From: Candidatus Krumholzibacteriota bacterium
GTDB taxonomy: Bacteria > Krumholzibacteriota > Krumholzibacteriia > JAJRXK01
Length of the DNA stretch: 64,000 nucleotides
Direction of reading: 5' to 3'
NCBI GenBank assembly: GCA_963764625.1
Contig: CAVXTH010000008.1
Location: 1-64,000 of the forward strand
Shown here: in pieces, positions 27,567 through 40,668 of the stretch
How the letters are laid out: each line of letters starts with the position of its first letter
How positions within the stretch are numbered: position 1 is the stretch's first letter
Position numbers and translations under genes: made by a program
Notes under the pieces: model-generated
Seen by the model: only the letters and a program-made list of their open reading frames with translations
Databases searched by the model: none
What the model was told of the DNA's origin: nothing

Positions 27567-29755
27567 TCAGCCGTCGAGGGTTTCGTCGGCCATCGCGGGC
27601 GCCGAGGGAATCAGACGAAGCTTCAGGCGCAGCCGATCTTCGACGAGCCAGTCGAAGACGAAGCAGCTTCCCTGACCGATTTTCTCCAGGCCCGCTTCGG
27701 AGGAAGAAACCGTGTGCACTGGCGCCCAGCGAAGGTGCGCCGGGGGGCTAAGCTTTACTCCCAGCTTCCGATCTCCTCCACCGCGCACCCGCAGGTGCTC
27801 GCAGTTCTCCTCTTCGCCGTAAGGGGCGGATTCGTACGCGCGACCCGCTTCGCCCTCAATCAGCTCGTCCAGCTCGTCGTTTCCTCCGCCCTTCGCGTAT
27901 TCGAGGTCTTCAGGGGTCCAACCGACGAACAGATTCCATTCGCTCAAGAATCTCCGGGGACCCTGCAGTGCCACCACTTCGATCTCGAATTCGAGCGACG
28001 CGTCCTGAGCGTTAATGTGTGTCGTCTGAGTAACGCGCAGTCCGTGCTGCTCGGTGTGCATGGTGATCATTCCGCTATCATCGACACGGACGATGTCCCA
28101 GCGTGCGTCCAGTCGTGACGCGCATGCGTCCAGCTCGCGGGGATCTTCGATCATCACTTCGGCGGGAGCCGACCAGGCGATGGCCGCGACTCTCCCGTGG
28201 GTGTCGACCCTCAGATCGCTGGTGTCCACGCCTGGCTTGACTCTCAGCTGGCCGTGAATGGTCGACACTTCGCTCTCGGCTTCCTTCGAATCGAGTTCTT
28301 TTCCCTCTTCGTCCACGTAGATGACGTTTCCCTGGCGCAGCGCCTCGTGGAAGGGCTCTTCGTGCCGTTGCATCACCGTGACCCAGTTCTCGCAGGCATC
28401 GCACAGGTCCCAGCTCAAGAGCCTGCCGCCCTTCGGGTCGAGAACGAGGTGGGTGTGCGGATTGGCAAGCTCGGCTTCATCGGCTCCGTCGGCGTCGAAA
28501 TCGACAAGGCGGGCCGTGGTCCAATCGAAATGCCCCTTGTCCAATCGGTCGAGAGTCCGCTCGGCGCGGATGAGCGCGCTCTCGAGCGCGCGGCGGAGAT
28601 GGGGCAGATAGAGCCCTCCGAACACCCCGTGCCAGTACGCATCGTTGCACTGACCCCGGTAGAGATCGCGGAGGGCTTCGCCCAGCCGTGCATCGCTCGT
28701 GCCCTTGTCTCTTATGTCACGGTGCTTTCGGCTCACCCGCAACATCCGCTTGTGGAGCCGGTTCGATTCGGGATACTTGGCGAGAAAGCCACGCCAGTGG
28801 CCTCCGCGTAAAAAAGGAAGCAATCCGGCCGGATCGTCGTTCTCGAGCCGGTGGAGAAGGATCTCCATTCTCGACCGCGCCTTCGTGGGCATGGCCCACA
28901 CCGTCAGTTCCGGATAACTCGCGGCCGGAGGATAGACCCGGCCCAAAGGCACGTGCGCTCGAGATGATCCTTCAGATGCACGAGCGAGATGGAGGAATCC
29001 TCGCGTAGCCGTTCCAAGAAGTCCCGCAACCATCCCTTGGTGAAAACCCATTCGTGCGTGCCGGGCCACTCGCCGAATTTTTCCGCGTCGTCAGCGTAAA
29101 CCACGAGCGGGGGATTCGCCCCAAGGCGCGGCAACTCGTGCACGAGCTTCAGGGATTCTGCCGGCGGCCGGAAGGGAATGGTGTAGCGCAGCGCTTTCGA
29201 GGCCGGGAAGAGCGCCAAAGGCAACCCGCTGTCGTCAGTGACATAGTGACCCGTCATTTCGTTCGGCTCGATTCCGGCCCAACGGAAGATCGTGTCGTCC
29301 AGGATGACGTAACGGACTCCGGCGCGCGCGAGCGGGTTGGGCAAGCGGGGCTCCCACACCCGTTCGGTGAGCCACGCCCCTACCGGAATCTGACCGAATC
29401 GCTGCTCGAGCTCCAGACTGAGCGCCCGCACTTGACCGATCGCGTCCTCTTCGGGCAGAACTCCCAGGATGGGTTCGCAGAGACCGCCGGTGAGAAGTTC
29501 GACGCTTCCCCGTCGCACCATGCGTTCCAGGATGCGCAGGATTTCGGGATGGTGCCGGTCGAACCACTCCAGGAGAATCGCGTTGAAGTGGAGATGCAGT
29601 TTGAGCTCGGGATAGTCGAACAGGAGCTCCAGAAGCGGCGCGTAACACGAATCGGTTACTTTCTCGAAGACCTCACCGAAGTTTCCCACCGGCTGGTGGA
29701 AATGCAACACGAACGCAAGGTGGGACCGTGTGCTGATCTCAGAGATTTCGTGCAC
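27567..29755 (-). CDS. GH57 alpha-amylase/4-alpha-glucanotransferase (DUF1925/DUF1926); apparent frameshift ~28960
   Basis: N-half HFHQPVGNF, WLTERVWEP, DDAEKFGEWPGTHEWV; C-half GRVYPPAASYPEL, KYPESNRLHKRM, QCNDAYWHGVFGGLYLPHLR, SSSEAGLE. Confidence 0.88.
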
Positions 29756-30998
29756 GATTTTCCGGCGAGTCCTTTCCCCTCGGAATGGCGATGACGCCCC
29801 CCGGAGAGACGTGGAAGCGCTCCTTGTCGCGGTCCAAATCGAAACCGATCTTTTCGTGGGGTGCGATGTGGTTGTTCTTGTCTACGATGACGTTGCGCAG
29901 ATTGACTCCGCGATCGATCCAGCAGTTGTCCAGGATGATGCAGTTTTCGACCATTGCTCCTTCGTCGACGAGAACGTTGCGCCCCAAAACGGAGTCCTTT
30001 ACGTATCCGCCGGAGAGAATGCAGCCCCCAGCCACCGTCGACTGCACTGCCTCGCCTCTACGACCGTCCTCATCGAAGACGAATTTTACCGGCGGATCGC
30101 TGTAGCTGACCGTTCGGATGGGCCAATCCCAGTTGTACAGGTTGAGACGCGGCTGGACGTTCTTCAGGTCGAGATTGGACTTGAAGTACGCGTCGAGAGT
30201 TCCGATGTCGCGCCAATACGCCGACTCCTCCACGCTCTCTAGCGGAATACGGTTGCGCTTGAAATCGTAGGCGTAGACCGGCATGAGGTGGATCATCTTG
30301 GGCAAGATGGACTTGCCGAAATCGTGCAGGGACTCGGGGTCCCCAGCGTCTTCCTCGAGGTAATCGACGAGAGTGTGCGTGTTGAAGATGTAGTTGCCCA
30401 TCGAGACCAGACTGTAGCCGGGACGACCCGGAATCTCCGAGGGCGTTTCGGGCTTCTCCTCGAAGCCGCTGATGCGCCCATCCTCTTCCACTTTGATCAC
30501 CCCGAAGGATTTCGCCATGGAGGACCTCACCGGCAGACAGGCCACGGTGGCCACCGCGCCGGCCTTTCGGTGGAAATCGATCATCTGCCGCACGTTCATC
30601 TTGTAGATGTGATCGGCGCCGAATACCGCGACCAGATCGGGGCGCGAGCGATCGAACAGGCGAATGTTCTGGCGGATGGCGTCGGCGGTCCCACGATACC
30701 ACGCGTCCCCGGCTTGCATCTGTGCCGGCACCGCGGTGATGAAACTGGTGGGACTAAAGACGCGCACCCAGGCCATCTGGAGATGCTCGAGCAGCGATTG
30801 CGCCTTGTACTGCGTCAGTACGTAGATGCTCTGCACGCCTGAATTCACCAGGTTGCTCAGGACGAAGTCGATGATCCGCCATTTTCCGCCGAATGGCACT
30901 GCGGGTTTGGACCGTTCGAGGGTCAGAGGGTACAGGCGTTGGCCTCGCCCCCCGGCCAGGACCACCGCGAGAACTCTTGCTTCCCGCTCCACGACCAT
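29739..30998 (-). CDS. glgC: Glucose-1-phosphate adenylyltransferase
   Basis: VLAGGRGQRLYPLT, KPAVPFGGKWRIIDF, WYRGTADA, DHIYKM, YWRDIGT. Confidence 0.96.
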   Translation of the reverse strand: MVVEREARVLAVVLAGGRGQRLYPLTLERSKPAVPFGGKWRIIDFVLSNLVNSGVQSIYVLTQYKAQSLLEHLQMAWVRVFSPTSFITAVPAQMQAGDAWYRGTADAIRQNIRLFDRSRPDLVAVFGADHIYKMNVRQMIDFHRKAGAVATVACLPVRSSMAKSFGVIKVEEDGRISGFEEKPETPSEIPGRPGYSLVSMGNYIFNTHTLVDYLEEDAGDPESLHDFGKSILPKMIHLMPVYAYDFKRNRIPLESVEESAYWRDIGTLDAYFKSNLDLKNVQPRLNLYNWDWPIRTVSYSDPPVKFVFDEDGRRGEAVQSTVAGGCILSGGYVKDSVLGRNVLVDEGAMVENCIILDNCWIDRGVNLRNVIVDKNNHIAPHEKIGFDLDRDKERFHVSPGGVIAIPRGKDSPENRARNL

Positions 30999-31211
30999 GA
31001 ATCTTTCCTTTCCGCCGTTCGTTGCCGAGTGCCATCGACTGTCAGTATAGGAAAGGCACCTGCGACGGGCAGCAGGAAAACTCAGATAAGTCTATTTTTT
31101 ACCGGAACTTGAGTTTCATTGGATGGCCTTACAGCAGTTTGGATGGAAGCGCCGCGCCGGAGCGTATTCCCGCCCTCGCGGTCGCTTCTGCCGGTCGGAG
31201 GGGCGAGCGTG

Positions 31212-33218
31212 TCAACCCCGCTCCATGAGCCGGTTTAGTTCCTCCCAGCGCTTCATCTTGGCGGCGAGGGTGGTCTCGAGCCGACCCGCGTCCTGCGCTG
31301 CCGTGGCCAGTTGGGCCGAGCTGAGCTCGCCCCGACTCATGCGCTGGCCGAGTACCTCTAGGTCCGCTTCCAGCAGGGAGATTTCCTCCTCGAGATCCTG
31401 AATCTCCCGCCGGATCTTGCCGAGCTGGTTTTTGGAGAGCTGACGCTTGGAAATCGAGACGTCGAAGCGGAGAGGGGCGTCCTCCGCCACCGTTTGGGCC
31501 GCTTTCGACGGGGGCTCCGACGGCGCGGCACCACGCACCGGGGGATCCACCGTCATGGAGCGAGCCTCCGCTGCTGCTTCCTTCTCCTGCTTCTGCTTGC
31601 GCCGGTACTCGTCATAGTTGCCCAAGACGAGGCGCACGCCGCTAGCGCTCGCGGTAGCCTCGAGTCCCCCGCCCGCCTTTGTTTCGAACGCGAAGATGCG
31701 ATCACAGATGCGGTTCAGGAAGTAGCGATCGTGAGAAACGCAGATGAGCGTCCCCGGATAGTGTACCAGGGCCTCTTCCAGCGCCTCCCGGCTGTCGGTA
31801 TCCAGATGATTGGTGGGTTCGTCCAGAAGGATGGTGTTGTGTCTCTCGAAGATCAGATGCAGCAAAGACAATCGCGCACGCTCCCCGCCGCTGAGGGAAC
31901 GCACCGGTTGATCGATCATGTCCTCTCCGAACCCGAACGCGGCGAGCAGCGAGCGTAGATCTCCGTCGCTGGCCAAAGGATCGAGGGCCCGTAGCTCGCC
32001 GAGCACGGTGTTGTTGTCGTTGACCAGGGAGAGACTCTGATCGTAGTACCCCAGGTCGGTGTTGTGACCCTGCGTGATGCTTCCTTGGCTTGGAACGATC
32101 TCGCGACTGAGTATTCGCAGCAGCGTCGTCTTCCCGGTTCCGTTGGGACCGATGATTCCCACTTTGTCGCCGCGCAGAATCTGGAATTCGAGATCCTGGA
32201 ACAGAGTCAGCTTCGCGAAGCAGTGGCTCAGCTTCGCCACTTCGAACACGACCTGTCCGCTCGGGCGCTCGGGGTTCAGATCGAAATTGTATTGCCGGCC
32301 CTCGCTGGGCGGCGCCTCGACGCGCTGCAACCGCGCGAGCTGTTTGCGTCGGCTCTTGGCCTGGTTGGTGCGTTGGCCGGCGATATTCTTGCGAATGAAG
32401 GCTTCCGTCTTGGCGATCTGTTGGCGCTGCCGGCGGTAGCGCGTTTCCCATTCCGATTTCTGCTCGCTCCATTGCCGCATGAACTTGGTATAGGAACCCT
32501 GGAAGCGATCAAGCCGCCCGTTGTAGAGGTGCAGAGTGAAACTCGTGGTGTTGTCGAGAAACGCCCGGTCGTGCGAGATCGCGATGAGCGCGCCCTTGCG
32601 CGCGTTGAGAGCTTCTTCCAACCACTCACGCGCATCCAGATCGAGGTGGTTCGTCGGTTCATCGAGAAGGAGCACGTCGTGCGGCGCCAGCATGACAGCC
32701 GCGAGTGCTGCGCGACGCTTCTGGCCTCCGCTCAGAGTGTTCACTGCCTGCTCGAAACGGCTCTGGCTGAAGCCGAGTCCCATGAGGGTCGCCTCGCAAC
32801 GCGCCTGCATCGTGTAGCCGTCGGCCGTCTCGAAGCGTTCGTGGAGACGACCGTACTCTTCCAGCAGGACCTCGTCGTCTTCGCCCTGCCCCATGCGCTG
32901 GGAGAGTTCTTCCAGGCGGCGCTCAACCCCGAGCAAGCCGGCGAAGGCAACGGCCCGCACCGCCTCGAGCAGAGGTTCCTCGCTCTGCAGACTGGTGTCC
33001 TGGGTCAGATAACCCACCGAAACCCTGGAGGCGCGTTGGACTTCGCCACGCAAGGTGCGAAGCTCTCCCGCCAGAAGCCGGATGAGAGTGCTCTTGCCCG
33101 CTCCGTTCACCCCCACCAGGCCGTAGCGCTCTCCCTCGTTCAAAGTGAGGTTCGCGCCGTCGAGGATGACCTGCCGGCCGTAATCGAAACTGACATTTTG
33201 CAGGGTAATGAGGGACAC
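31212..33218 (-). CDS. ABC-F family ATP-binding protein (Uup/YheS-like)
   Basis: Two ABC domains (GVNGAGKST, LSGGQ, LDEPTNHLD twice), no TM segments, C-terminal coiled coil; probable GTG start at 33218. Confidence 0.93.
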   Translation of the reverse strand: MSLITLQNVSFDYGRQVILDGANLTLNEGERYGLVGVNGAGKSTLIRLLAGELRTLRGEVQRASRVSVGYLTQDTSLQSEEPLLEAVRAVAFAGLLGVERRLEELSQRMGQGEDDEVLLEEYGRLHERFETADGYTMQARCEATLMGLGFSQSRFEQAVNTLSGGQKRRAALAAVMLAPHDVLLLDEPTNHLDLDAREWLEEALNARKGALIAISHDRAFLDNTTSFTLHLYNGRLDRFQGSYTKFMRQWSEQKSEWETRYRRQRQQIAKTEAFIRKNIAGQRTNQAKSRRKQLARLQRVEAPPSEGRQYNFDLNPERPSGQVVFEVAKLSHCFAKLTLFQDLEFQILRGDKVGIIGPNGTGKTTLLRILSREIVPSQGSITQGHNTDLGYYDQSLSLVNDNNTVLGELRALDPLASDGDLRSLLAAFGFGEDMIDQPVRSLSGGERARLSLLHLIFERHNTILLDEPTNHLDTDSREALEEALVHYPGTLICVSHDRYFLNRICDRIFAFETKAGGGLEATASASGVRLVLGNYDEYRRKQKQEKEAAAEARSMTVDPPVRGAAPSEPPSKAAQTVAEDAPLRFDVSISKRQLSKNQLGKIRREIQDLEEEISLLEADLEVLGQRMSRGELSSAQLATAAQDAGRLETTLAAKMKRWEELNRLMERG

Positions 33219-33223
33219 GGCTC

Positions 33224-34360
33224 TCAACTCATGCGGCGCTGCAACCACAGTCCGAAGAAAGGATCGACGAAGCGGATGTCGGCGCCGTTACGATTCAGGA
33301 TTTCCCGCTCGGACAGCACCCGCAGGTTTTTTGCCACGGTGCTGGGCGAGCCCAATCCCAAACGTACCACCATTCTCTGAGAGTGCAGCTTCTCGGTGAA
33401 ACCCTGGGCGATGGCCAGGGCCAGCGTCTTCTGGTGAGCGGAGAGCTGGTCCCACTGGAACTTGAACGCGTACGCCTGTCCTTCCAGGACGTGTGAGAGC
33501 GCGGCCTTGAGGTCGTCGCTGGTGGCGGTGCCCTTCTCCTGCGCCTGTTCGTAGAGGGAGTGCGCCAGCATCTGCACGTAGTGCGGAATGGTATCGGCCA
33601 GGCGCAGAAGCTCGTGGAGGAGCGCGTGCTCGATGCCCACCCCCCGTTCCACGAACAACTGTTCGAGCCCTTCGACCATCGCACCCCGCGGCACCGGCTC
33701 CAGCCGCATTGATTCGGCCAGTCGGTAGAATGGGCTGTGCGGCTCCTCGAAGAGCCGTTCGATGGTGGTGTCCTTGCGCAGGACGAAGACGTAGCTCACG
33801 TGAATCTGCTTGCGCGCCGCATTCGCCACCTCGCGCAAGAGTCCGGGCTGCGCCACCGCGATGAGGTCTTCGAAATCGTCGAAGATGACGGTGAGGGGGC
33901 GGCCACTGCGGCTCTGCATTTCGGCCGGAACCTCGAAAATCCGATCCATCAGGGCCTGAATGTCGCGCTCCCGGTCCCACAGATCCAGTTGCAGGGCGGG
34001 CCGGCCCTCGCCGCTCAGGGTGACCCGGGGCGAGAAATTGGGAATCAACTGCCGGAGAGCCTCCTGCGTGTCCTGCATGGTGCGCGATGGGCTCAGGGTG
34101 AGGGCCGAGGCGTAGAGCTCGGCGAAGCGACGCGGGTTCAAGGCGGGGAGCAGATCGACGTAGGCCAGGTCCATCTTCCCCTTGGCGCCCGCCCTCGCGA
34201 CCGCGGCCAAAAGGCTACTCTTCCCGATGCCCCGCGGACCCACCAGGGCCAGATTGCGGGCCTCGAGCAGAAGGGTCAGAATCCGCTCCCGTTCGGCCTC
34301 GCGGTCGATGAGGAGCGCCTGGTCGACGGGACTCCCGAAGCGGAAGGGATTGGCGGGCAT
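33224..34360 (-). CDS. AAA+/STAND-like ATPase (archaeal ATPase family) with C-terminal winged helix
   Basis: MPANPFRFGSPV…DRE, Walker A GPRGIGKSS, Walker B VIFDDFE, 'IPHYVQ', C-terminal FVDPFFGLWL. Confidence 0.85.
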   Translation of the reverse strand: MPANPFRFGSPVDQALLIDREAERERILTLLLEARNLALVGPRGIGKSSLLAAVARAGAKGKMDLAYVDLLPALNPRRFAELYASALTLSPSRTMQDTQEALRQLIPNFSPRVTLSGEGRPALQLDLWDRERDIQALMDRIFEVPAEMQSRSGRPLTVIFDDFEDLIAVAQPGLLREVANAARKQIHVSYVFVLRKDTTIERLFEEPHSPFYRLAESMRLEPVPRGAMVEGLEQLFVERGVGIEHALLHELLRLADTIPHYVQMLAHSLYEQAQEKGTATSDDLKAALSHVLEGQAYAFKFQWDQLSAHQKTLALAIAQGFTEKLHSQRMVVRLGLGSPSTVAKNLRVLSEREILNRNGADIRFVDPFFGLWLQRRMS

Positions 34361-34471
34361 GAAGGCGATCCTCGCTCGAGCGAAGGGGAAGCAAGGCGCG
34401 CGGTCTACAACGAGACGGCGATCTCTCACCCAGCGGCACTTTACTACTTGGTGCAATACCAGAAAAGATAC

Positions 34472-34500
34472 TTGCACACCACTTGCCAGTAAAGTATACA
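34472..34500 (+). promoter_or_regulatory. Sigma70-like promoter for the downstream intergenic RNA
   Basis: TTGCAC(34472-77)-N17-TATACA(34495-500) in an AT-rich patch; ACTTGC repeated at an 11-bp period (34470, 34481). Confidence 0.55.
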
Positions 34501-34505
34501 TGGCC

Positions 34506-34790
34506 ATGATCCTGGGCGGTAGAATGGACGAGTTTCTCGTTCTGTCGTCGTTTGGTCGGACGGTGCGGATCGGGGGGCGTGGGGCACCCGGATTGCGTTG
34601 TCCTTCACCACGGTCTCTGGGCAATTGCCCGTAGGATATCGGCTTTGCCGGTGACCCCCGTGGCTTGAACGAAGAGCAGAGGCTGATGGCGGCCTACCGC
34701 CCGGATCACTGGATTACCGGAAAACGGTGAACGTGGTTAGCCGAACGGTGATCGAGAGAGAAGGGGGCCTTCGTGGCCCCCTTCTTCGTT
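34506..34790 (+). ncRNA. Candidate structured ncRNA (~200-nt rod; 6S-like or novel)
   Basis: Closing stem TGATCC(T)GGGCGGTAG 34507-22 / CTACCGCCCGGATCA 34694-708, with nested G-U-rich helices; starts at the predicted +1; terminator-like hairpin downstream. Confidence 0.6.
34759..34785. terminator. Intrinsic terminator-like hairpin, possibly bidirectional
   Basis: AGAAGGGGGCC-TTCGT-GGCCCCCTTCT, perfect 11-bp stem with pyrimidine tails on both strands, between convergent units. Confidence 0.8.
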
Positions 34791-34825
34791 CCGCGCGAGT
34801 TTTCTAAGCCTGGCCGGCGCCTCCG

Positions 34826-35542
34826 CTAGCGCCCGTCCCGCAGCCTCCGCCAGGAGTACTCCGGTAGTCCCGCTTCCTGGTACGCGGCAACGGTTTTCTC
34901 GATGTCGTACTCCAGACGAATCTGGTCGAGGCGGGCCGCGGCGGTGTCGACCACGCAGTAGGCGCTGCGATTGTCGCGATCGCGCGGTTGGCCCACGCTC
35001 CCCGGGTTGATGAGGTAGCGCCGGTCGTATTCGAGCTCCATCCCCTCCAGCGGTCCTGCCGCGAGGCGGCTCCCATCGTGCACGAACTGCAGATGGGAAT
35101 GGCCACAGAAGGTGAGCCAATAGCGGGCGTGGCCCAGCATCCCCTCGATTTGGGGCAGGAAAATGAGATACTCGTCGCGGTCGTCGGGAGAACCGTGCGA
35201 GAGCTGGATCTCCTCTCCGATCACCAGGGTGGGCTCCAGGGTCTTCAGGAACTCGTATTGTTCTTCTTCGATCGCGCTGCGACTGTACTCGATGGCCAGC
35301 CGGGCGAATTCGTTGAATCTCCCGGCAGTGGGTTCGTTCAGAAGTGCCGCCTCGTGGTTTCCCTGGAGAATGCGGCAGTCGAGCGCGCGCAAGAGCTCCA
35401 GGCATTCTCCGGGATGAGGACCGTAGCCCACCACGTCGCCCAGGCAGGCGTATCCGTCCACCTCGCGCGCGGCCGCGTCTTGAAGCACCGTCTCGAGCGC
35501 GGCGAGATTGCCATGGATGTCGGCCAGAATGCACAGGCGCAT
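34826..35542 (-). CDS. Metallophosphoesterase (calcineurin-like, YfcE/PPP-related)
   Basis: ADIHGN, LGDVVGYG, GNHE, HGSP, GHSH, NPGSVGQPRD; start ATG at 35542. Confidence 0.92.
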   Translation of the reverse strand: MRLCILADIHGNLAALETVLQDAAAREVDGYACLGDVVGYGPHPGECLELLRALDCRILQGNHEAALLNEPTAGRFNEFARLAIEYSRSAIEEEQYEFLKTLEPTLVIGEEIQLSHGSPDDRDEYLIFLPQIEGMLGHARYWLTFCGHSHLQFVHDGSRLAAGPLEGMELEYDRRYLINPGSVGQPRDRDNRSAYCVVDTAAARLDQIRLEYDIEKTVAAYQEAGLPEYSWRRLRDGR

Positions 35543-35644
35543 GGGAGAGCGACCTTTCGAAGATGAGGTGTCCCAAAACGTACCACACCCGGAGCCCCGC
35601 CGCCGTAGGGAAAGCGGCACGGCGCTTGCCTTTGCGAGGCTGAA

Positions 35645-36384
35645 ATGACCCCTCTCCTCATAGCCCACCGAGGCGACAGCGCCCACGCACCGGAAAATAC
35701 TCTGCCCGCGTTCGAGCAGGCGGTGGACCGGGGCGCCGACTGGATCGAGATGGACCTGACGCTCGCACGCGACGACGAAGTGGTCGTGAGTCACGATTTC
35801 AGCCTCTGGCGGCGCGCCCGCTCACGCCGGCGGCTGCGCGATTTGAGCGCCGGCAACTGGCCCGCGTCGACGTCTCCCGCGGCTTTCCCGCTTTCTCGCC
35901 CACCGGCGTACCCCGCTTCGAAGAGGTGTTGGCCAGGGTCGGCACCCAGGTTCCTCTCTACCTGGAGCTCAAGTCACAAGGGGAAGGAAGGCGCCGCGCC
36001 GCGAATCGGCGCCTGCTCGAGCGCTGCCTCCGGCTGGTCCCGCGCTCCTCGCCGCATGCCCTGGCCTCGTTCGACACCGGTCTGGTGCGAGGCGCCTTGG
36101 AGGCGAAGCGCCGGGCCATCTTGATTCTATCCGACCCGGCGTCTCTGGCGCGGCTGAATCCCGCGCAGCGTCGCGCGCTCTACGCGGTGAGCGTACGCTA
36201 CGACCTCATCTCTACCGTCTTCTTTGAGCGATTGCTCGAGGAAGGACATAGAGTCTGGGTCTGGACGGTGGACGATCCGCGCCAGGTGGAGCACGCGCTC
36301 AAGCGCGGCGCCAAGGGAATCTGCGGAAACGACGTCGCCAAAATCAAAGTCGCGTTGCGACGCCACGAGGGGAGCTCGAAGTGA
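35645..36384 (+). CDS. Glycerophosphodiester phosphodiesterase; apparent frameshift ~35852
   Basis: IAHRGDSAHAPENTLPAF, IEMD, VSHD in the first frame; YLELK, SFD, WVWTVDD in the second frame. Confidence 0.85.
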
Positions 36385-37946
36385 ACGCGCGCGACATCAC
36401 CGAGCTCGCCGCGCGTCGATTCGACCTGATCGTGGTGGGAGGCGGCATCGCGGGTTGTGGCATCGCCCGTGACGCCGCGCTGCGTGGCCTTTCGGTTCTG
36501 CTCGTCGAAAAGGACGATTTCGCTTCGGCCACCAGTAGCGCCAGCTCCAAACTGGTCCACGGCGGTCTGCGATACCTGGAGTACTTCCGCTTCGGTCTGG
36601 TTCGCGAGAGCCTTCGCGAGCGCGAGACCCTGCTGCGCATCGCACCGCACCTCGTCCGTTCCCTTCCGTTCCTACTTCCGGTCTATCGCAATACAGGGCG
36701 CCCGCTCTGGAAACTCCGCGCGGGACTCGCGCTCTACGATCTTCTCTCGGCGCGCATGAGCTTGGGCCGGCACCGAATGCTTTCGGCGGAAGAAATCGCC
36801 GCCGAAGAGCCTCGCTTGCATACGGCGGGGCTGAGCGGTGGCTTCCACTTTCACGACGCCCAGATGAACGACGCGCGCATGGTCCTGGAAAACGCGCTCG
36901 ACGCGCAGGCCCATGGGGCGCTGTTGCTGAGTCGCGTCGAATGCAAAGATCTGCTGGTGCGAGACGGGCACGTCGTCGGAGTTCATCTCCGCGATACTCT
37001 CGACGGTCAACGGGTCCAGGTACAAGCGAAGATCGTGGTGAACGCGGCCGGTCCCTGGTACGCGCGCGTCTTGGGCATGCAGAGCCTTACGCAGAGGGTA
37101 CGGCCTCGGCTGAGCCGCGGTACTCACATCGTCATTCCGTCCATCACCCAGGGACATGGAGTTCTGCTCCAGTCCCGCCAGGATCGTCGCGTGCTGTTCG
37201 CCCTGCCCTGGAAAGGTCAGAGTCTGGTCGGAACCACCGAGGCGGAACACCAGGGAGAGCCGGAGGACCTGAGAGTCCCCCGGGAGGACATCGAGTACCT
37301 GCTGCGCGAGATCAACAGCTACTTTCCGAGCCGGAAGGCGGGTGAGTGGAAAGTTCTCTCTTCCTTCGTGGGTCTGCGCACGCTTCTCCCCGACGACTCC
37401 AAGCTGGGTGAAGTGAGCCGTGAGGCACAGGTACGAGAGGAAGCGCCCGGCCTGGTGTGCGTACTGGGCGGCAAGTTCACCACTTACCGCGCGGTCGCCG
37501 AGCGCACGGTCGATCTGGTCTCGCTTCTGATCGGGGTGAAGTCCAAGCTGGCGTGTCGAACCGCGGAACTCCCACTACCCGGCGGCGACATTCCGGAGAT
37601 GAACGATTACTTCCGCGTGGCGGAAAAGCTCCTGGTCCGCGAGACGAATCTGCCTCTGCCGACTCTGCGCTATCTGCTGGGAACTTACGGCGGCCGTCAC
37701 ACCGCCATTTTGAAATCGCTGCGCGAGCACCCGGAGTGGGCTGAGCCCTTGGAGAAAGATCTCCCGTTCACCATCGCCGAGGTCGTGCATGCGGTTCGCC
37801 ACGAACACGCGCTCACTCTCTCCGACCTGATCTGGCGGCGCACATGGAGAGCCTATCTCGGACCCCTGGACGACGTGGCGGCCGGCCGCTGGGAGGCGGC
37901 ACTCCGGGAGGGACTGCAGGGAAAGCCGCGGCGCATCCTGGTGTGA
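36381..37946 (+). CDS. glpD: FAD-dependent glycerol-3-phosphate dehydrogenase
   Basis: DLIVVGGGIAG, DFASATSSASSKLVHGGLRYLE, GGKFTTYR; GTGA-coupled to the GDPD gene. Confidence 0.92.
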   Translation: MNARDITELAARRFDLIVVGGGIAGCGIARDAALRGLSVLLVEKDDFASATSSASSKLVHGGLRYLEYFRFGLVRESLRERETLLRIAPHLVRSLPFLLPVYRNTGRPLWKLRAGLALYDLLSARMSLGRHRMLSAEEIAAEEPRLHTAGLSGGFHFHDAQMNDARMVLENALDAQAHGALLLSRVECKDLLVRDGHVVGVHLRDTLDGQRVQVQAKIVVNAAGPWYARVLGMQSLTQRVRPRLSRGTHIVIPSITQGHGVLLQSRQDRRVLFALPWKGQSLVGTTEAEHQGEPEDLRVPREDIEYLLREINSYFPSRKAGEWKVLSSFVGLRTLLPDDSKLGEVSREAQVREEAPGLVCVLGGKFTTYRAVAERTVDLVSLLIGVKSKLACRTAELPLPGGDIPEMNDYFRVAEKLLVRETNLPLPTLRYLLGTYGGRHTAILKSLREHPEWAEPLEKDLPFTIAEVVHAVRHEHALTLSDLIWRRTWRAYLGPLDDVAAGRWEAALREGLQGKPRRILV

Positions 37947-37950
37947 ACTC

Positions 37951-38730
37951 TCAGATGCTGCGCATCCGTCCCCCGTCGATCGCGATGCTCTGCCCGCGCA
38001 GGTAGGCCGCCTCGGGCGAGGCGAGGTAGGCGATGAGTTCGCCCAGTTCGCCCGGTTGCGCCAACCGGCCCTCGGGAATCTGAGCCAACCATTCTCTCTC
38101 GATCAGCTCTTGATCGACTCCCCGCGAGCGCGCCAGAGCGCTCTTGAGCTCGGCCAGCCGTTCGGTGTCGGTGAAGCCGGGGAGCACGTTGTTGATCGTC
38201 ACGCCGGGCGGCAGCTCCTGCGAGACCGACTTGGCCCATCCGGCCATCGCGGCGCGCGTCGTGTTACTCACCCCCAAACCGGGGATGGGTTCGTAAACGG
38301 AAGTGGACACCACGTTGATCACGCGTCCGAAACCCTCCGCCCGCATCCCCGGCAAGCAGATCTGCACCAGGAGGTGTGAGGCGAGAACGTGACGCGAGAA
38401 CGCACGCAGGAAATCTTCTCCGCCCGCGTCCAGAATGGGGCCCAAAGGGGGACCACCCGTGTTATTCACGAGCACATGAATCACACCGTGCTCGCTCAGG
38501 TGCTTCCGGACGCTCTCCTCCAGCTTGGGGCGATCGTCCAGGTCAGCCGCCAACACCTCGACCGTCGGCGCGCCCTCCTGCCTCAGTTGCCCGGCGAGCT
38601 CCTCGAGAACTGGTCCTCGACGTGACAAAAGCGTCAGGGCATGTCCTCGTCGCGCCAACGCGACAGCGGCCGCCCGGCCGATTCCCATGCTGGCTCCGCA
38701 GACCAGCGCGTGGTGAGTTCGTGGAGACAT
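37951..38730 (-). CDS. Short-chain dehydrogenase/reductase
   Basis: ALVCGASMGIG, VLVNNTGGP, SNTTR (atypical catalytic motif), PGFTDTER, IDGG; start ATG at 38730. Confidence 0.88.
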   Translation of the reverse strand: MSPRTHHALVCGASMGIGRAAAVALARRGHALTLLSRRGPVLEELAGQLRQEGAPTVEVLAADLDDRPKLEESVRKHLSEHGVIHVLVNNTGGPPLGPILDAGGEDFLRAFSRHVLASHLLVQICLPGMRAEGFGRVINVVSTSVYEPIPGLGVSNTTRAAMAGWAKSVSQELPPGVTINNVLPGFTDTERLAELKSALARSRGVDQELIEREWLAQIPEGRLAQPGELGELIAYLASPEAAYLRGQSIAIDGGRMRSI

Positions 38731-38952
38731 GATTTGCTCGCTTTCCCTCTGGTGCCCCCACCGGTGCTGCCTTTTCGCAGCGGGGCTCGAACTCGGCGTG
38801 GGCTCGCCTTGAAACTCCCGGGCTGAGCTTAGATCTTGGCCGGATTCGACTCCAGCCTTTCCGGAAGCCGCTCGCGTCCGCCCTCGATTCCTGGTATTCT
38901 CTTTTGGCGCTGATTGGGCTCTACTTCGCATCACTCCGCTCGCAGGTCGGCC

Positions 38953-40668
38953 GTGGCACCCTCTTCTGAGAATGACGAACTCCTGAAGCAATATCGCTGT
39001 CTCGAGGAACGGCTCGCCGAACTGGAAGAATTCAAGCTGAAACACGAAGCTACCGAGCGGGCCCTTCGTGAGAGCGAGGAGAAATTCCGTCTCATCTCCG
39101 AACAGTCCATGATCGCGATCTCCGTCATCCAGGACGGCGCGTTCAAGTACTGCAACGAGACCTTCCTGCGCCTGGTCGAGTATCAACTCGACGAAATCCG
39201 TGAAATGAAATCGCTGGAGAGCATTTCCCGGCTCATTCATCCGGACGATCGAGAATTCGTCGTCGGGCAGATCACGCGCAAGATGCGTGGCGACAAAGAC
39301 GTGGTCACGAACTATCCCATGCGCTTGCTCACCTCCTCCGGCTCGGTCCGCTGGGCGGAGATCTACTCGAAGACCGTGATCTTCCAAGGGCGGCCCGCCG
39401 ATCTCGTCACGATGACCGACATCACCATGCGCAAGCGCGCGGAAGAAGAGCGTGCCAGCTTACAGGCTCAGGTTTTCCAGGCCCAGAAACTGGAGAGTCT
39501 GGGTGTCTTTACCGGCGGCATCGCTCATGACTTCAACAATCTGTTGTGCAGCATTCTGGGCAGCGCCGAACTGGCCCTACGCGAACTTCCCCAAGGCGAT
39601 AGGGCTAGAGCCCACATGGAGGAGATCCACCACGCGGCCGAGCACGGAACCGAACTCTGCCGTCAGATGCTGGCCTACGCCGGTAAGGCCGCGCCCGGGA
39701 GGGTCGCCATCGATCTCGTCGAACTCATTCGCGAGATGGACCGACTGTTTCGAATCTCCATTTCCCGCGACATCGAATTGCAGGTGGAAGCACCCTCGTC
39801 TCTGTCCACGATCAACGGTGACCCGAGCCAGATTCGACAGATCCTCCTCAATCTGGTCATCAATGCCTCGGAAGCTTTCGAGGGAAAAATGGGCAGCATC
39901 ATGATTCGGTTGGGAGAGGAACACTGCGAGCCAAAGGTGTTGACCTCCCCCTGGCTGAATCAGGATCTCCCGGCGGGGGAGTACGTCTACCTAGAGGTAG
40001 AGGATGACGGGAGGGGGATGGACGAGGCCACTCTCTTGCGGGTTTTCGACCCCTTCTTCTCCACCAAGTTCACGGGCCGCGGTCTCGGTCTGGCATCGAC
40101 GCTGGGGATCATCAAGGAACACAAGGGGAGCATCCAGGTCGAGAGCGCCTTGGGTAAGGGGACCCGGTTCCGCATTCGCTTTCCCGCCGCCGAGGGCGTG
40201 GCGGCGCAACGCAAGCGGATCGAGGCCGACCGGGAATGGGCGGGCAGTGGACTGGCCCTGCTCATCGAAGACGAGGAATCGGTTCGGGTGGTCACGCGAC
40301 GCCTGCTGGAAAACCTGGGCCTCCAAGTAGAAATGGCGAACAACGGGGTGGAGGGACTGGCAAAGTTCGGGGAGAGACCGCAGGATTTTCAGCTCGTGAT
40401 CGCGGACATGATCATGCCCCAGCTCGGCGGCGAAAAGGTTCTCGAGGAGATTCGCAAACGCCGGAGTGACCTGCCCGTCCTGTTGACCAGCGGATTCAAC
40501 CAAACCGACGCCGCTCACACTCCGGCGCGTGATCCCAAGACGGAATTCCTGCCCAAACCCTTTGGTCTGAGCGAGCTGCGCAAAATCCTCGCCCGCCTCT
40601 TGCAACCGGGACCCGATCAGTCGACGAAGAAGTCGGGAAAGAGCTCGGCTCCGGGTTCCATCGCGTAG
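38953..40668 (+). CDS. Soluble hybrid PAS sensor histidine kinase/receiver (CckA-like)
   Basis: PAS (LIHPDDRE, DITMRKRAEE), AQKLESLG…GGIAHDFNNLL, NLVINA, FDPFFSTK, C-terminal REC; start uncertain (38914 or 38953). Confidence 0.9.
   Translation: MAPSSENDELLKQYRCLEERLAELEEFKLKHEATERALRESEEKFRLISEQSMIAISVIQDGAFKYCNETFLRLVEYQLDEIREMKSLESISRLIHPDDREFVVGQITRKMRGDKDVVTNYPMRLLTSSGSVRWAEIYSKTVIFQGRPADLVTMTDITMRKRAEEERASLQAQVFQAQKLESLGVFTGGIAHDFNNLLCSILGSAELALRELPQGDRARAHMEEIHHAAEHGTELCRQMLAYAGKAAPGRVAIDLVELIREMDRLFRISISRDIELQVEAPSSLSTINGDPSQIRQILLNLVINASEAFEGKMGSIMIRLGEEHCEPKVLTSPWLNQDLPAGEYVYLEVEDDGRGMDEATLLRVFDPFFSTKFTGRGLGLASTLGIIKEHKGSIQVESALGKGTRFRIRFPAAEGVAAQRKRIEADREWAGSGLALLIEDEESVRVVTRRLLENLGLQVEMANNGVEGLAKFGERPQDFQLVIADMIMPQLGGEKVLEEIRKRRSDLPVLLTSGFNQTDAAHTPARDPKTEFLPKPFGLSELRKILARLLQPGPDQSTKKSGKSSAPGSIA

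Follow-up and report, generated by a model that had tools for sequence, protein, structure and literature searches.

Background

Several pairs of bacterial small RNAs (sRNAs), either sRNA and sponge or kissing-loop partners, are known, e.g. ChiX with the chb spacer, GcvB with SroC, CopA/CopT and RNA I/RNA II, and some sRNA genes lie divergent from the gene of their own regulator (OxyR/OxyS, GcvA/GcvB and SgrR/SgrS). In addition, Rfam holds large structured bacterial RNAs of unknown function such as raiA, OLE, ROOL, GOLLD and HEARO, as well as the stand-alone 6S RNA (RF00013). Here we report on a locus that has traits in common with all of these. It lies within a stretch of 64,000 nucleotides from a Candidatus Krumholzibacteriota bacterium (assembly GCA_963764625.1, contig CAVXTH010000008.1, positions 1 to 64,000 of the forward strand; referred to as the window, whose positions are used throughout) and encodes RNA A, a stand-alone structured RNA gene that is specific to one family of Candidatus Krumholzibacteriota.

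Like 6S RNA, RNA A is stand-alone, a few hundred nucleotides long, closed by a long terminal stem, provided with its own promoter and present in one copy per genome. Unlike 6S RNA it is branched rather than a rod with a central bubble, is ~285 nt instead of ~185 nt long, matches no 6S model in a genome that has its own 6S RNA, and carries a 3' hairpin complementary to another RNA, RNA B. The predicted A-B pairing resembles the sponge and kissing-loop pairs in that it involves separately transcribed RNAs with extended, conserved complementarity in loops, one of them short and terminator-ended; it differs in that both RNAs are novel, their genes are on separate contigs and outside mRNAs and plasmid control regions, and RNA A has a large extra structured domain. 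As for the sRNA genes divergent from their regulators, the RNA A gene stands back to back with the gene of a putative DNA-binding protein, with a conserved dyad in between, but this candidate regulator is an Orc1/Cdc6-like AAA+/winged-helix ATPase and not a LysR-type or similar protein. RNA A shares a complex conserved fold, invariant unpaired nucleotides and a narrow distribution with raiA, OLE, ROOL, GOLLD and HEARO, and differs from them in that it is smaller than most, occurs in one family only and gives no cmscan match at E up to 10.

Ms1 RNA of Actinobacteria is reported to be 6S-like and to bind the core of RNA polymerase (PMC9130861, PMC4191392). Ms1 and RNA A are alike in their size of ~300 nt, in standing alone, in being restricted to a clade and in occurring next to or in place of 6S RNA; RNA A belongs to another phylum and nothing suggests that it binds polymerase. 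A literature search, judged by titles and the starts of abstracts, found no published regulatory RNA for Krumholzibacteriota. RNA A and RNA B are both new as families, while regulatory RNAs that act by pairing with other RNAs are well known as a kind.

The RNA A gene

The 465 bp gap between positions 34361 and 34825, flanked by two minus-strand genes, almost certainly encodes a genuine plus-strand non-coding RNA (ncRNA). Its transcription unit comprises the following features:

34472-34477, plus strand: -35-like hexamer TTGCAC, inside an invariant ACTTGC (sequence and homologues)
34489-34500, plus strand: invariant GTAAAGTAT, overlapping the -10-like TATACA at 34495-34500 (all 13 homologues)
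34507-34791, plus strand: RNA A, whole predicted transcript of ~285 nt, with unmapped ends inferred from promoter and terminator
34760-34791, plus strand: intrinsic terminator, GAAGGGGGCC / GGCCCCCUUC followed by a U-rich tail, with a GC-rich hairpin at 34760-34784

The homologues are 13 distinct sequences from 16 loci scored by R1, a covariance model (CM) of the RNA A core with 208 positions. The original prediction, made from the letters of the window, had proposed a ~200-nt RNA with a promoter TTGCAC-N17-TATACA and a strong hairpin at 34759-85. These boxes are present in the sequence, 17 nt apart, and their layout, CTTGCN...GTAAAGTATNAA, recurs in 13 of the 13 distinct homologues. Moreover, the 9-mer GTAAAGTAT (34489-34497) is unique within the 3.57-Mb genome. 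The hairpin turned out to be the terminator stem, the sequence of which varies between genera and yet is kept in every homologue with the T-rich run always on the plus strand. The proposed size was too short, since the 3' hairpin (34712-34753) and the terminator are also part of the transcript and extend it to ~285 nt. The promoter boxes and the terminator hairpin with its U-run, as expected of an independent sRNA gene, are conserved and lie on the same strand. A simple scanner listed no terminator and did not list this promoter; the single promoter-like site that it called, TTGCCA-N16-CATGAT (34483-34510), overlaps this promoter but is not the same, so that the call of an sRNA gene rests on conservation. 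The conserved boxes can alternatively be read as GAAACTT-N16-TAAAGT, and recognition by a non-primary sigma factor is possible.

Part of the stretch is contained in 20 public sequencing runs, five of which are RNA libraries. Over 34000-35200, each of the four RNA libraries examined (metatranscriptomes from four studies) gave one or two short contigs, all inside 34527-34763, of 69-187 nt and 90-99% alike to RNA A. One of them has a loose end of 27 nt resembling the P2 region (see below) of a sister species and another ends at 34705 in adapter-like letters. None of the contigs from these four runs lies on 34000-34526 or 34764-35200, an absence that we do not count as evidence.

Distribution of RNA A

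RNA A is, as judged from the genomes and metagenomes searched, restricted to one family of Candidatus Krumholzibacteriota, which is also the whole order (the order contains the same 10 genomes as the family). Within the genus, BLAST recovered the region in all four of the other species, and it recovered part of it in one further genus; R1 found exactly one full-length copy in each of the 10 family genomes, representing four genera. RNA A was not found in a sample of 141 other genomes of the class. A second model, R2, covering the P4 hairpin, scored 55-89 bits in the 10 family genomes and gave only seven marginal matches (23-27 bits) among these 141; the seven loci (L028-L034, in other families) have no promoter, P4 motif or 3' motif, look coding and were rejected.

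A pattern scan for the 3' hairpin in the genomes of 185,579 species returned five loci. Three are in Candidatus Krumholzibacteriota/Krumholzibacteriia metagenome-assembled genomes, the fourth ('uncultured bacterium') matches the sequence of family genome G009, and the fifth, in Saccharothrix (L038), is a chance site. Finally, a metagenome scan yielded seven loci, including three new variants (L042, L044 and L046), three that are near-identical to known sequences, and one, L040, that was dismissed as a chance match.

Structure of RNA A

The structured core of RNA A spans ~205 nt. Its consensus fold, computed with RNAalifold, and the 3' hairpin that follows it consist of these parts:

34505-34522, plus strand: P1 closing stem, 5' strand, pairing with 34694-34711 (RNAalifold)
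34526-34542, plus strand: P2, local hairpin GGACGAG-UUU-CUCGUUC, of variable length in other genera (minimum free energy fold, compensatory changes)
34544-34549, plus strand: P3, 5' strand, pairing with 34688-34693 (consensus fold)
34554-34609, plus strand: P4, long hairpin rich in G-U pairs (consensus fold, homologues)
34611-34685, plus strand: P5 domain, with a stem of 34611-34618 and 34678-34685 (consensus fold)
34688-34711, plus strand: 3' strands of P3 and P1 (consensus fold)
34712-34753, plus strand: 3' hairpin with stem GAUUACCG/CGGUGAUC (homologues)

Both sides have changed in 10 of the 17 pairs of P1 and in 6 of the 18 pairs of P4, and the apex of P4, GCGUGGGGCACC (34577-34588), is invariant across all 13 homologues. 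The P5 stem encloses three hairpins (34619-34630, 34634-34656 and 34663-34677) and P5 is the region of greatest variation between genera. The loop of the 3' hairpin carries AACGUGGUUAGCCGAAC (34730-34746), the core of which, GUGGUUAGCC, is invariant in 13 of 13 homologues.

As a single sequence, the 205 nt from 34506 fold at -99.9 kcal/mol and better than shuffled controls (z = -3.54, 200 shuffles). The opposite strand does so as well (z = -3.72), and folding energy alone therefore cannot choose the strand. In the alignment of the 13 distinct sequences fitted to R1, 91.0% of the cells are paired and 38 of the 71 pairs have changed on both sides, a strong covariation that none of 500 column shuffles reached on any of five measures, and slid partners gave 35-45% pairing. 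The RNA A core is branched (P1 to P5), is maintained by compensatory changes and is not rod-shaped.

A rod of nested helices had been drawn from the window sequence. Its closing stem is real (34505-34522 with 34694-34711) and its apical GGGC/GCCC hairpin at 34619-34630 belongs to the consensus fold. With respect to the inner rod, all the listed pairs exist in the window sequence, but they do not covary across the relatives: in an unfitted MAFFT alignment of six sequences the inner helices are 84.6% paired with two double-changed pairs, a result equalled by 232 of 500 shuffles. In the same alignment the branched consensus, which was derived from these very six sequences, is 94.7% paired with eight double-changed pairs and none of 500 shuffles reached it. 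Specifically, 34531-43 was assigned to a long helix, while 34526-34542 instead forms the local hairpin P2 with compensatory changes. Hence, a rod drawn from a single sequence can mislead even for a genuine RNA.

The strand is indicated by the G-U pairs, as had been argued for the rod. There are 115 G-U cells in RNA A, and pairing amounts to 91.0% when read on the plus strand and to 80.5% when read on the opposite strand. This bears on the reading that the region is a minus-strand cis-acting leader, or a DNA element, serving the ATPase gene (33224-34360, minus strand) with no separate RNA gene. Such an element would be consistent with the position between two minus-strand genes and with a minus strand that also beats its shuffles (z = -3.72). 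We consider it highly unlikely: on the minus strand the 115 G-U cells turn into A-C mismatches, the promoter boxes and T-runs are on the plus strand in all homologues, and the structure lies upstream of both the dyad and the ATPase start, past a plausible 5' untranslated region.

The window sequence also has a frame of 43 codons beginning with an ATG at 34506, which could be taken for a small protein gene. It is ruled out by 1-nt indels between close relatives (alignment columns 42, 55 and 167); in addition, the other genera have no ATG and a 16-nt insert, and the substitutions track base pairing rather than codons. The probability of a protein product is thus negligible.

Relationship to 6S RNA and other known RNA families

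From its size and rod-like drawing, RNA A had been suggested to be either a divergent 6S RNA or a new class of ncRNA. With the 4227 models of Rfam 15, cmscan of both strands of the whole window found no family at gathering score. On 34350-34850 at E up to 10 there was no match to RF00013 or any other family, with just four weak terminator-like hits; MH_s15, for instance, reached 20.4 bits compared with a cut-off of 123. The canonical 6S RNA of the window's genome (G000) is located elsewhere (G000:C6:723021-723200, 55.7 bits), and the RNA of the signal recognition particle (77.8 bits), RNase P RNA (301.3 bits) and transfer-messenger RNA (158.3 bits) are on other contigs of G000. With the canonical housekeeping RNAs encoded elsewhere, RNA A is additional to them and not a divergent copy of a universal RNA.

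Among the family genomes, 8 of 10 have a 6S RNA that exceeds the cut-off, at a locus separate from RNA A. No match to RF00013 at E up to 0.01 was detected in the remaining two, G005 and G006 (93% and 95% complete), and this could be cited for a divergent 6S or a second 6S-like (Ms1-like) RNA that would bind RNA polymerase by mimicking an open promoter. So could the size, which is of a similar order, the long closing stem, and the possession of a promoter and a terminator. Against it stand the absence of any match reported above, the canonical 6S RNA in G000 and in 8 of the 10 genomes, and the fact that the multi-branched fold covaries and the rod helices do not; the rod with its central bubble is not kept in the homologues. 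RNA A is therefore very probably no member of the 6S family, and a polymerase-binding 6S-like role appears very unlikely. The other suggestion, a new ncRNA class, agrees with the promoter-to-terminator unit, the covariation, the G-U strand bias and the lack of an Rfam match.

We also considered an apparent complementarity of the 3' loop to helix 18 of 16S rRNA. It was dropped as unsupported, as a scan of the genome for GGCTAAC[CT]AC gave no rRNA site, in an assembly that may lack rRNA.

RNA B and its complementarity to RNA A

When the genome was scanned for the loop motif of RNA A, the 17-mer AACGTGGTTAGCCGAAC was found to recur on contig C5, inside an intergenic element:

G000:C5:85135-85216 (outside the window), plus strand: RNA B, an unannotated RNA of ~80 nt with its own terminator (loci L051-L060 and L072-L080)

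RNA B lies between genes for a peptidase M16 and a VanY-domain protein. The element is present in 10 of 10 family genomes with 79-89% identity, and its ~80-nt core has a mean column identity of 88% across genera, which is above that of RNA A. Its distribution is identical to that of RNA A: BLAST detected it in none of the 141 other class genomes, and R3, a model of RNA B, matched in all nine family genomes sampled and in none of 142 other genomes of the phylum. In Rfam, RNA B gave terminator-like matches only. RNA B folds into a closing stem of 13 bp that contains invariant G-U pairs, together with two short helices and, at the apex, a loop of ~25 nt; the terminator comes next. On the assigned strand 98.1% of the cells are paired, compared with 83.3% on the other strand, and promoter-like boxes (TTG...-N17/18-TATGCT) lie just upstream in the same orientation.

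The apical loop of RNA B reads GGCUAACCACGUU, the exact complement of the 3' loop of RNA A. In each of the 10 genomes, the longest Watson-Crick run between the two RNAs is located at this site and measures 13-18 nt; with shuffled RNA B (300 shuffles per genome) the longest run had a mean of ~7 and a maximum of 10-13. The complementary site is located in the loops of both RNAs, and within the 3' half of RNA A no part is as strictly conserved as the loop motif, which occupies the loop in every genus. The sole change seen between the partners is one from G-C to G-U at one flank, and the core is invariant in both RNAs. When whole-length RNAs were compared with RNAduplex, z varied between -0.3 and -5.6 (mononucleotide shuffles), with the loop site in the optimum in 9 of 10 genomes; since RNAduplex builds unrealistically long duplexes in GC-rich RNA, the test of the longest run was used instead. 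Together, these comparisons lead us to favour, by a small measure, a functional pairing between RNA A and RNA B.

Two further GTGGTTAGCC sites, at C8:185637 and C9:30823, are deep in long open reading frames (ORFs) and were rejected as partners; the genome has no other such site. Likewise, a 9-mer, CTTTACTAC, common to the dyad at RNA A and the region upstream of RNA B was judged to be compatible with chance.

R3 also gave weak antisense matches on the 3' hairpin and terminator of RNA A (G004:C4:273183-273276, 26 bits; G001:C30:9793-9877, 23.7 bits), and in these two genomes the terminator stem resembles the complement of the 5' end of RNA B. A BLAST of RNA B aligns 44 nt at the 3' region of RNA A with 80% identity. 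There are thus hints that RNA A and RNA B may have arisen by an inverted duplication. In the interval that separates RNA B from the next ORF on the minus strand (G000:C5:84940-85100; L050:2941-3100), CAAGATCTTG-type palindromes and a CTGCCA...TGGCAG hairpin are common to three species of the genus.

The divergent ATPase gene and the conserved dyad

On the other side of the promoter, the RNA A gene adjoins a dyad and a divergent protein gene:

33224-34360, minus strand: AAA+/winged-helix protein of 378 amino acids with an Orc1/Cdc6-like fold, P-loop ATPase (Pfam, structure model)
34438-34457, no strand: imperfect dyad, centred at about -60 from the RNA A start, candidate operator between the RNA A and ATPase genes

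The dyad reads ACTTTACT-ACTT-GGTGCAAT, i.e. ACTTTACTACTTGGTGCAAT, and is a perfect palindrome, TTCACCGATCGGTGAA, in one other genus. Of 13 upstream regions, 12 have it at this position and the 13th (meta44) is only partly similar. At every locus examined the ATPase gene is the immediate, divergent neighbour of RNA A and is full length, with 55-90% identity, and orthologues of at least 55% identity are present only in the 10 family genomes.

In Pfam, the ATPase matches nSTAND1 above the cut-off, and AAA_16 and ATPase_2 below their curated cut-offs. It has a Walker A (APRGxGKTSLL) and a Walker B (DDFED) motif and a C-terminal winged helix. The closest structures in the PDB to its model (predicted local distance difference test score 76.5) are the DNA-bound archaeal Orc1/Cdc6 (2v1u_A, E 6.5e-10, TM 0.59) and the archaeal AAA+ proteins PAB2304 and SSO1545 (2qen and 2fna). 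Searches of NCBIfam, PADLOC and PDB sequences with the ATPase gave nothing specific. A role in defence was considered and rejected, as its sole trace is a weak PADLOC match to mad8 (23.3 bits) via the P-loop region, and the locus is single-copy and syntenic with housekeeping genes on its flanks.

Distant homologues (20-32% identity) are encoded in 24 of the 141 other class genomes. Most of the ten that were examined (L089-L098) have a palindrome of the type TTACGCA-N4-TGCGTAA directly upstream of their own start, often doubled and beside a TTGACA box, and upstream of these ten there was none of the motifs of RNA A. This pattern fits a family of AAA+/winged-helix proteins that would be DNA-binding autoregulators. 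Since the distant homologues have upstream palindromes of their own, the different dyad at RNA A is a plausible operator, and control of RNA A by the neighbouring ATPase is conceivable, at somewhat below an even chance.

Proposed function of RNA A

The best explanation of the data, which in our judgement has about an even chance of being correct, is that RNA A is a regulated structured RNA that would act through a loop-loop duplex with RNA B. The 3' loop of RNA A and the apical loop of RNA B would form a kissing duplex of 13-18 bp, by which either RNA would titrate the other or target it for decay, in the manner of sRNA/sponge or antisense-control pairs. The divergent Orc1/Cdc6-like AAA+/winged-helix protein would set the transcription of RNA A through the dyad at about -60, and another partner, either a protein or a ligand, probably exists for the large conserved core of RNA A. 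It is a tentative and rather doubtful extension that RNA A, RNA B and the Orc1/Cdc6-like protein make up a single dedicated regulatory module, specific to the clade and without a described precedent, in which an ATP-dependent DNA-binding switch would drive RNA A, the core would sense or bind its partner and the 3' loop would capture RNA B, a small and almost invariant hairpin RNA, by a kissing interaction.

Several points weigh against the duplex explanation. A role as sponge would need no conserved core of 205 nt. As the loops of both RNAs are invariant there is no compensatory change that would prove intermolecular pairing, and because of their common ancestry the 10 genomes are not independent; moreover, a lone match of 17 nt to some part of RNA A somewhere in a genome of 3.57 Mb is in itself not exceedingly rare, with ~0.1 expected by our estimate. 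For the whole-length RNAs, the RNAduplex result is weak in 4 of 10 genomes (z -0.3 to -0.9) and the optimum in G005 misses the loop site entirely. The orientation of RNA B is based on its G-U pairs and the promoter-like boxes. With regard to RNA A, the CM alignments fitted to R1 lean to the model's own structure, and the contigs from the RNA libraries attest its presence only and give no ends, strand or level.

The main alternative is that RNA A mainly binds a protein or a ligand, as part of a ribonucleoprotein, a sensor or a scaffold, in which case the core would be the function and the complementarity to RNA B secondary, either a relic of an inverted duplication or a means to bring RNA B into the same particle. 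This would account for the large, conserved and branched core, in which unpaired motifs, e.g. GCGUGGGGCACC, are invariant, and it agrees with the single copy in every genome of the clade. RNA B, moreover, is conserved over its full length (88% mean column identity), as is often the case for RNAs with protein partners, and the weak antisense matches of R3 to the 3' region of RNA A in G004 and G001 hint at a common origin. However, no partner protein was identified, the neighbouring ATPase resembles a DNA binder, and the strictest conservation in the 3' half of RNA A is that of the loop motif, which is in a loop in every genus. We regard this alternative as possible but on the unlikely side.

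Genomic context

The gene beyond RNA A on the other side of the gap is the following:

34826-35794, minus strand: calcineurin-like metallophosphoesterase gene, on the other side of the gap from the ATPase gene

It is adjacent to RNA A in two genera and farther off in the others, and the 3.2 kb examined in G007 did not contain it. The neighbours in the window at 27567-33248 and 35926-39387 look ordinary and include alpha-amylase/4-alpha-glucanotransferase domains, a nucleotidyl transferase with a hexapeptide repeat, an ABC-F type double ABC ATPase, a GDPD fragment, an FAD-dependent oxidoreductase of the glycerol-3-phosphate type and a short-chain dehydrogenase.

Conclusions

The Krumholzibacteriota are without a cultured model, and we provide two new RNA families for this phylum with solid comparative support. 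The finding also supplies an RNA-RNA interaction that can be tested and a candidate regulator of an unusual, Orc1/Cdc6-like, type. If the pairing between RNA A and RNA B is functional, the two would represent a rare conserved pair of stand-alone, trans-encoded ncRNAs recognised from comparative genomics alone in an uncultured phylum.

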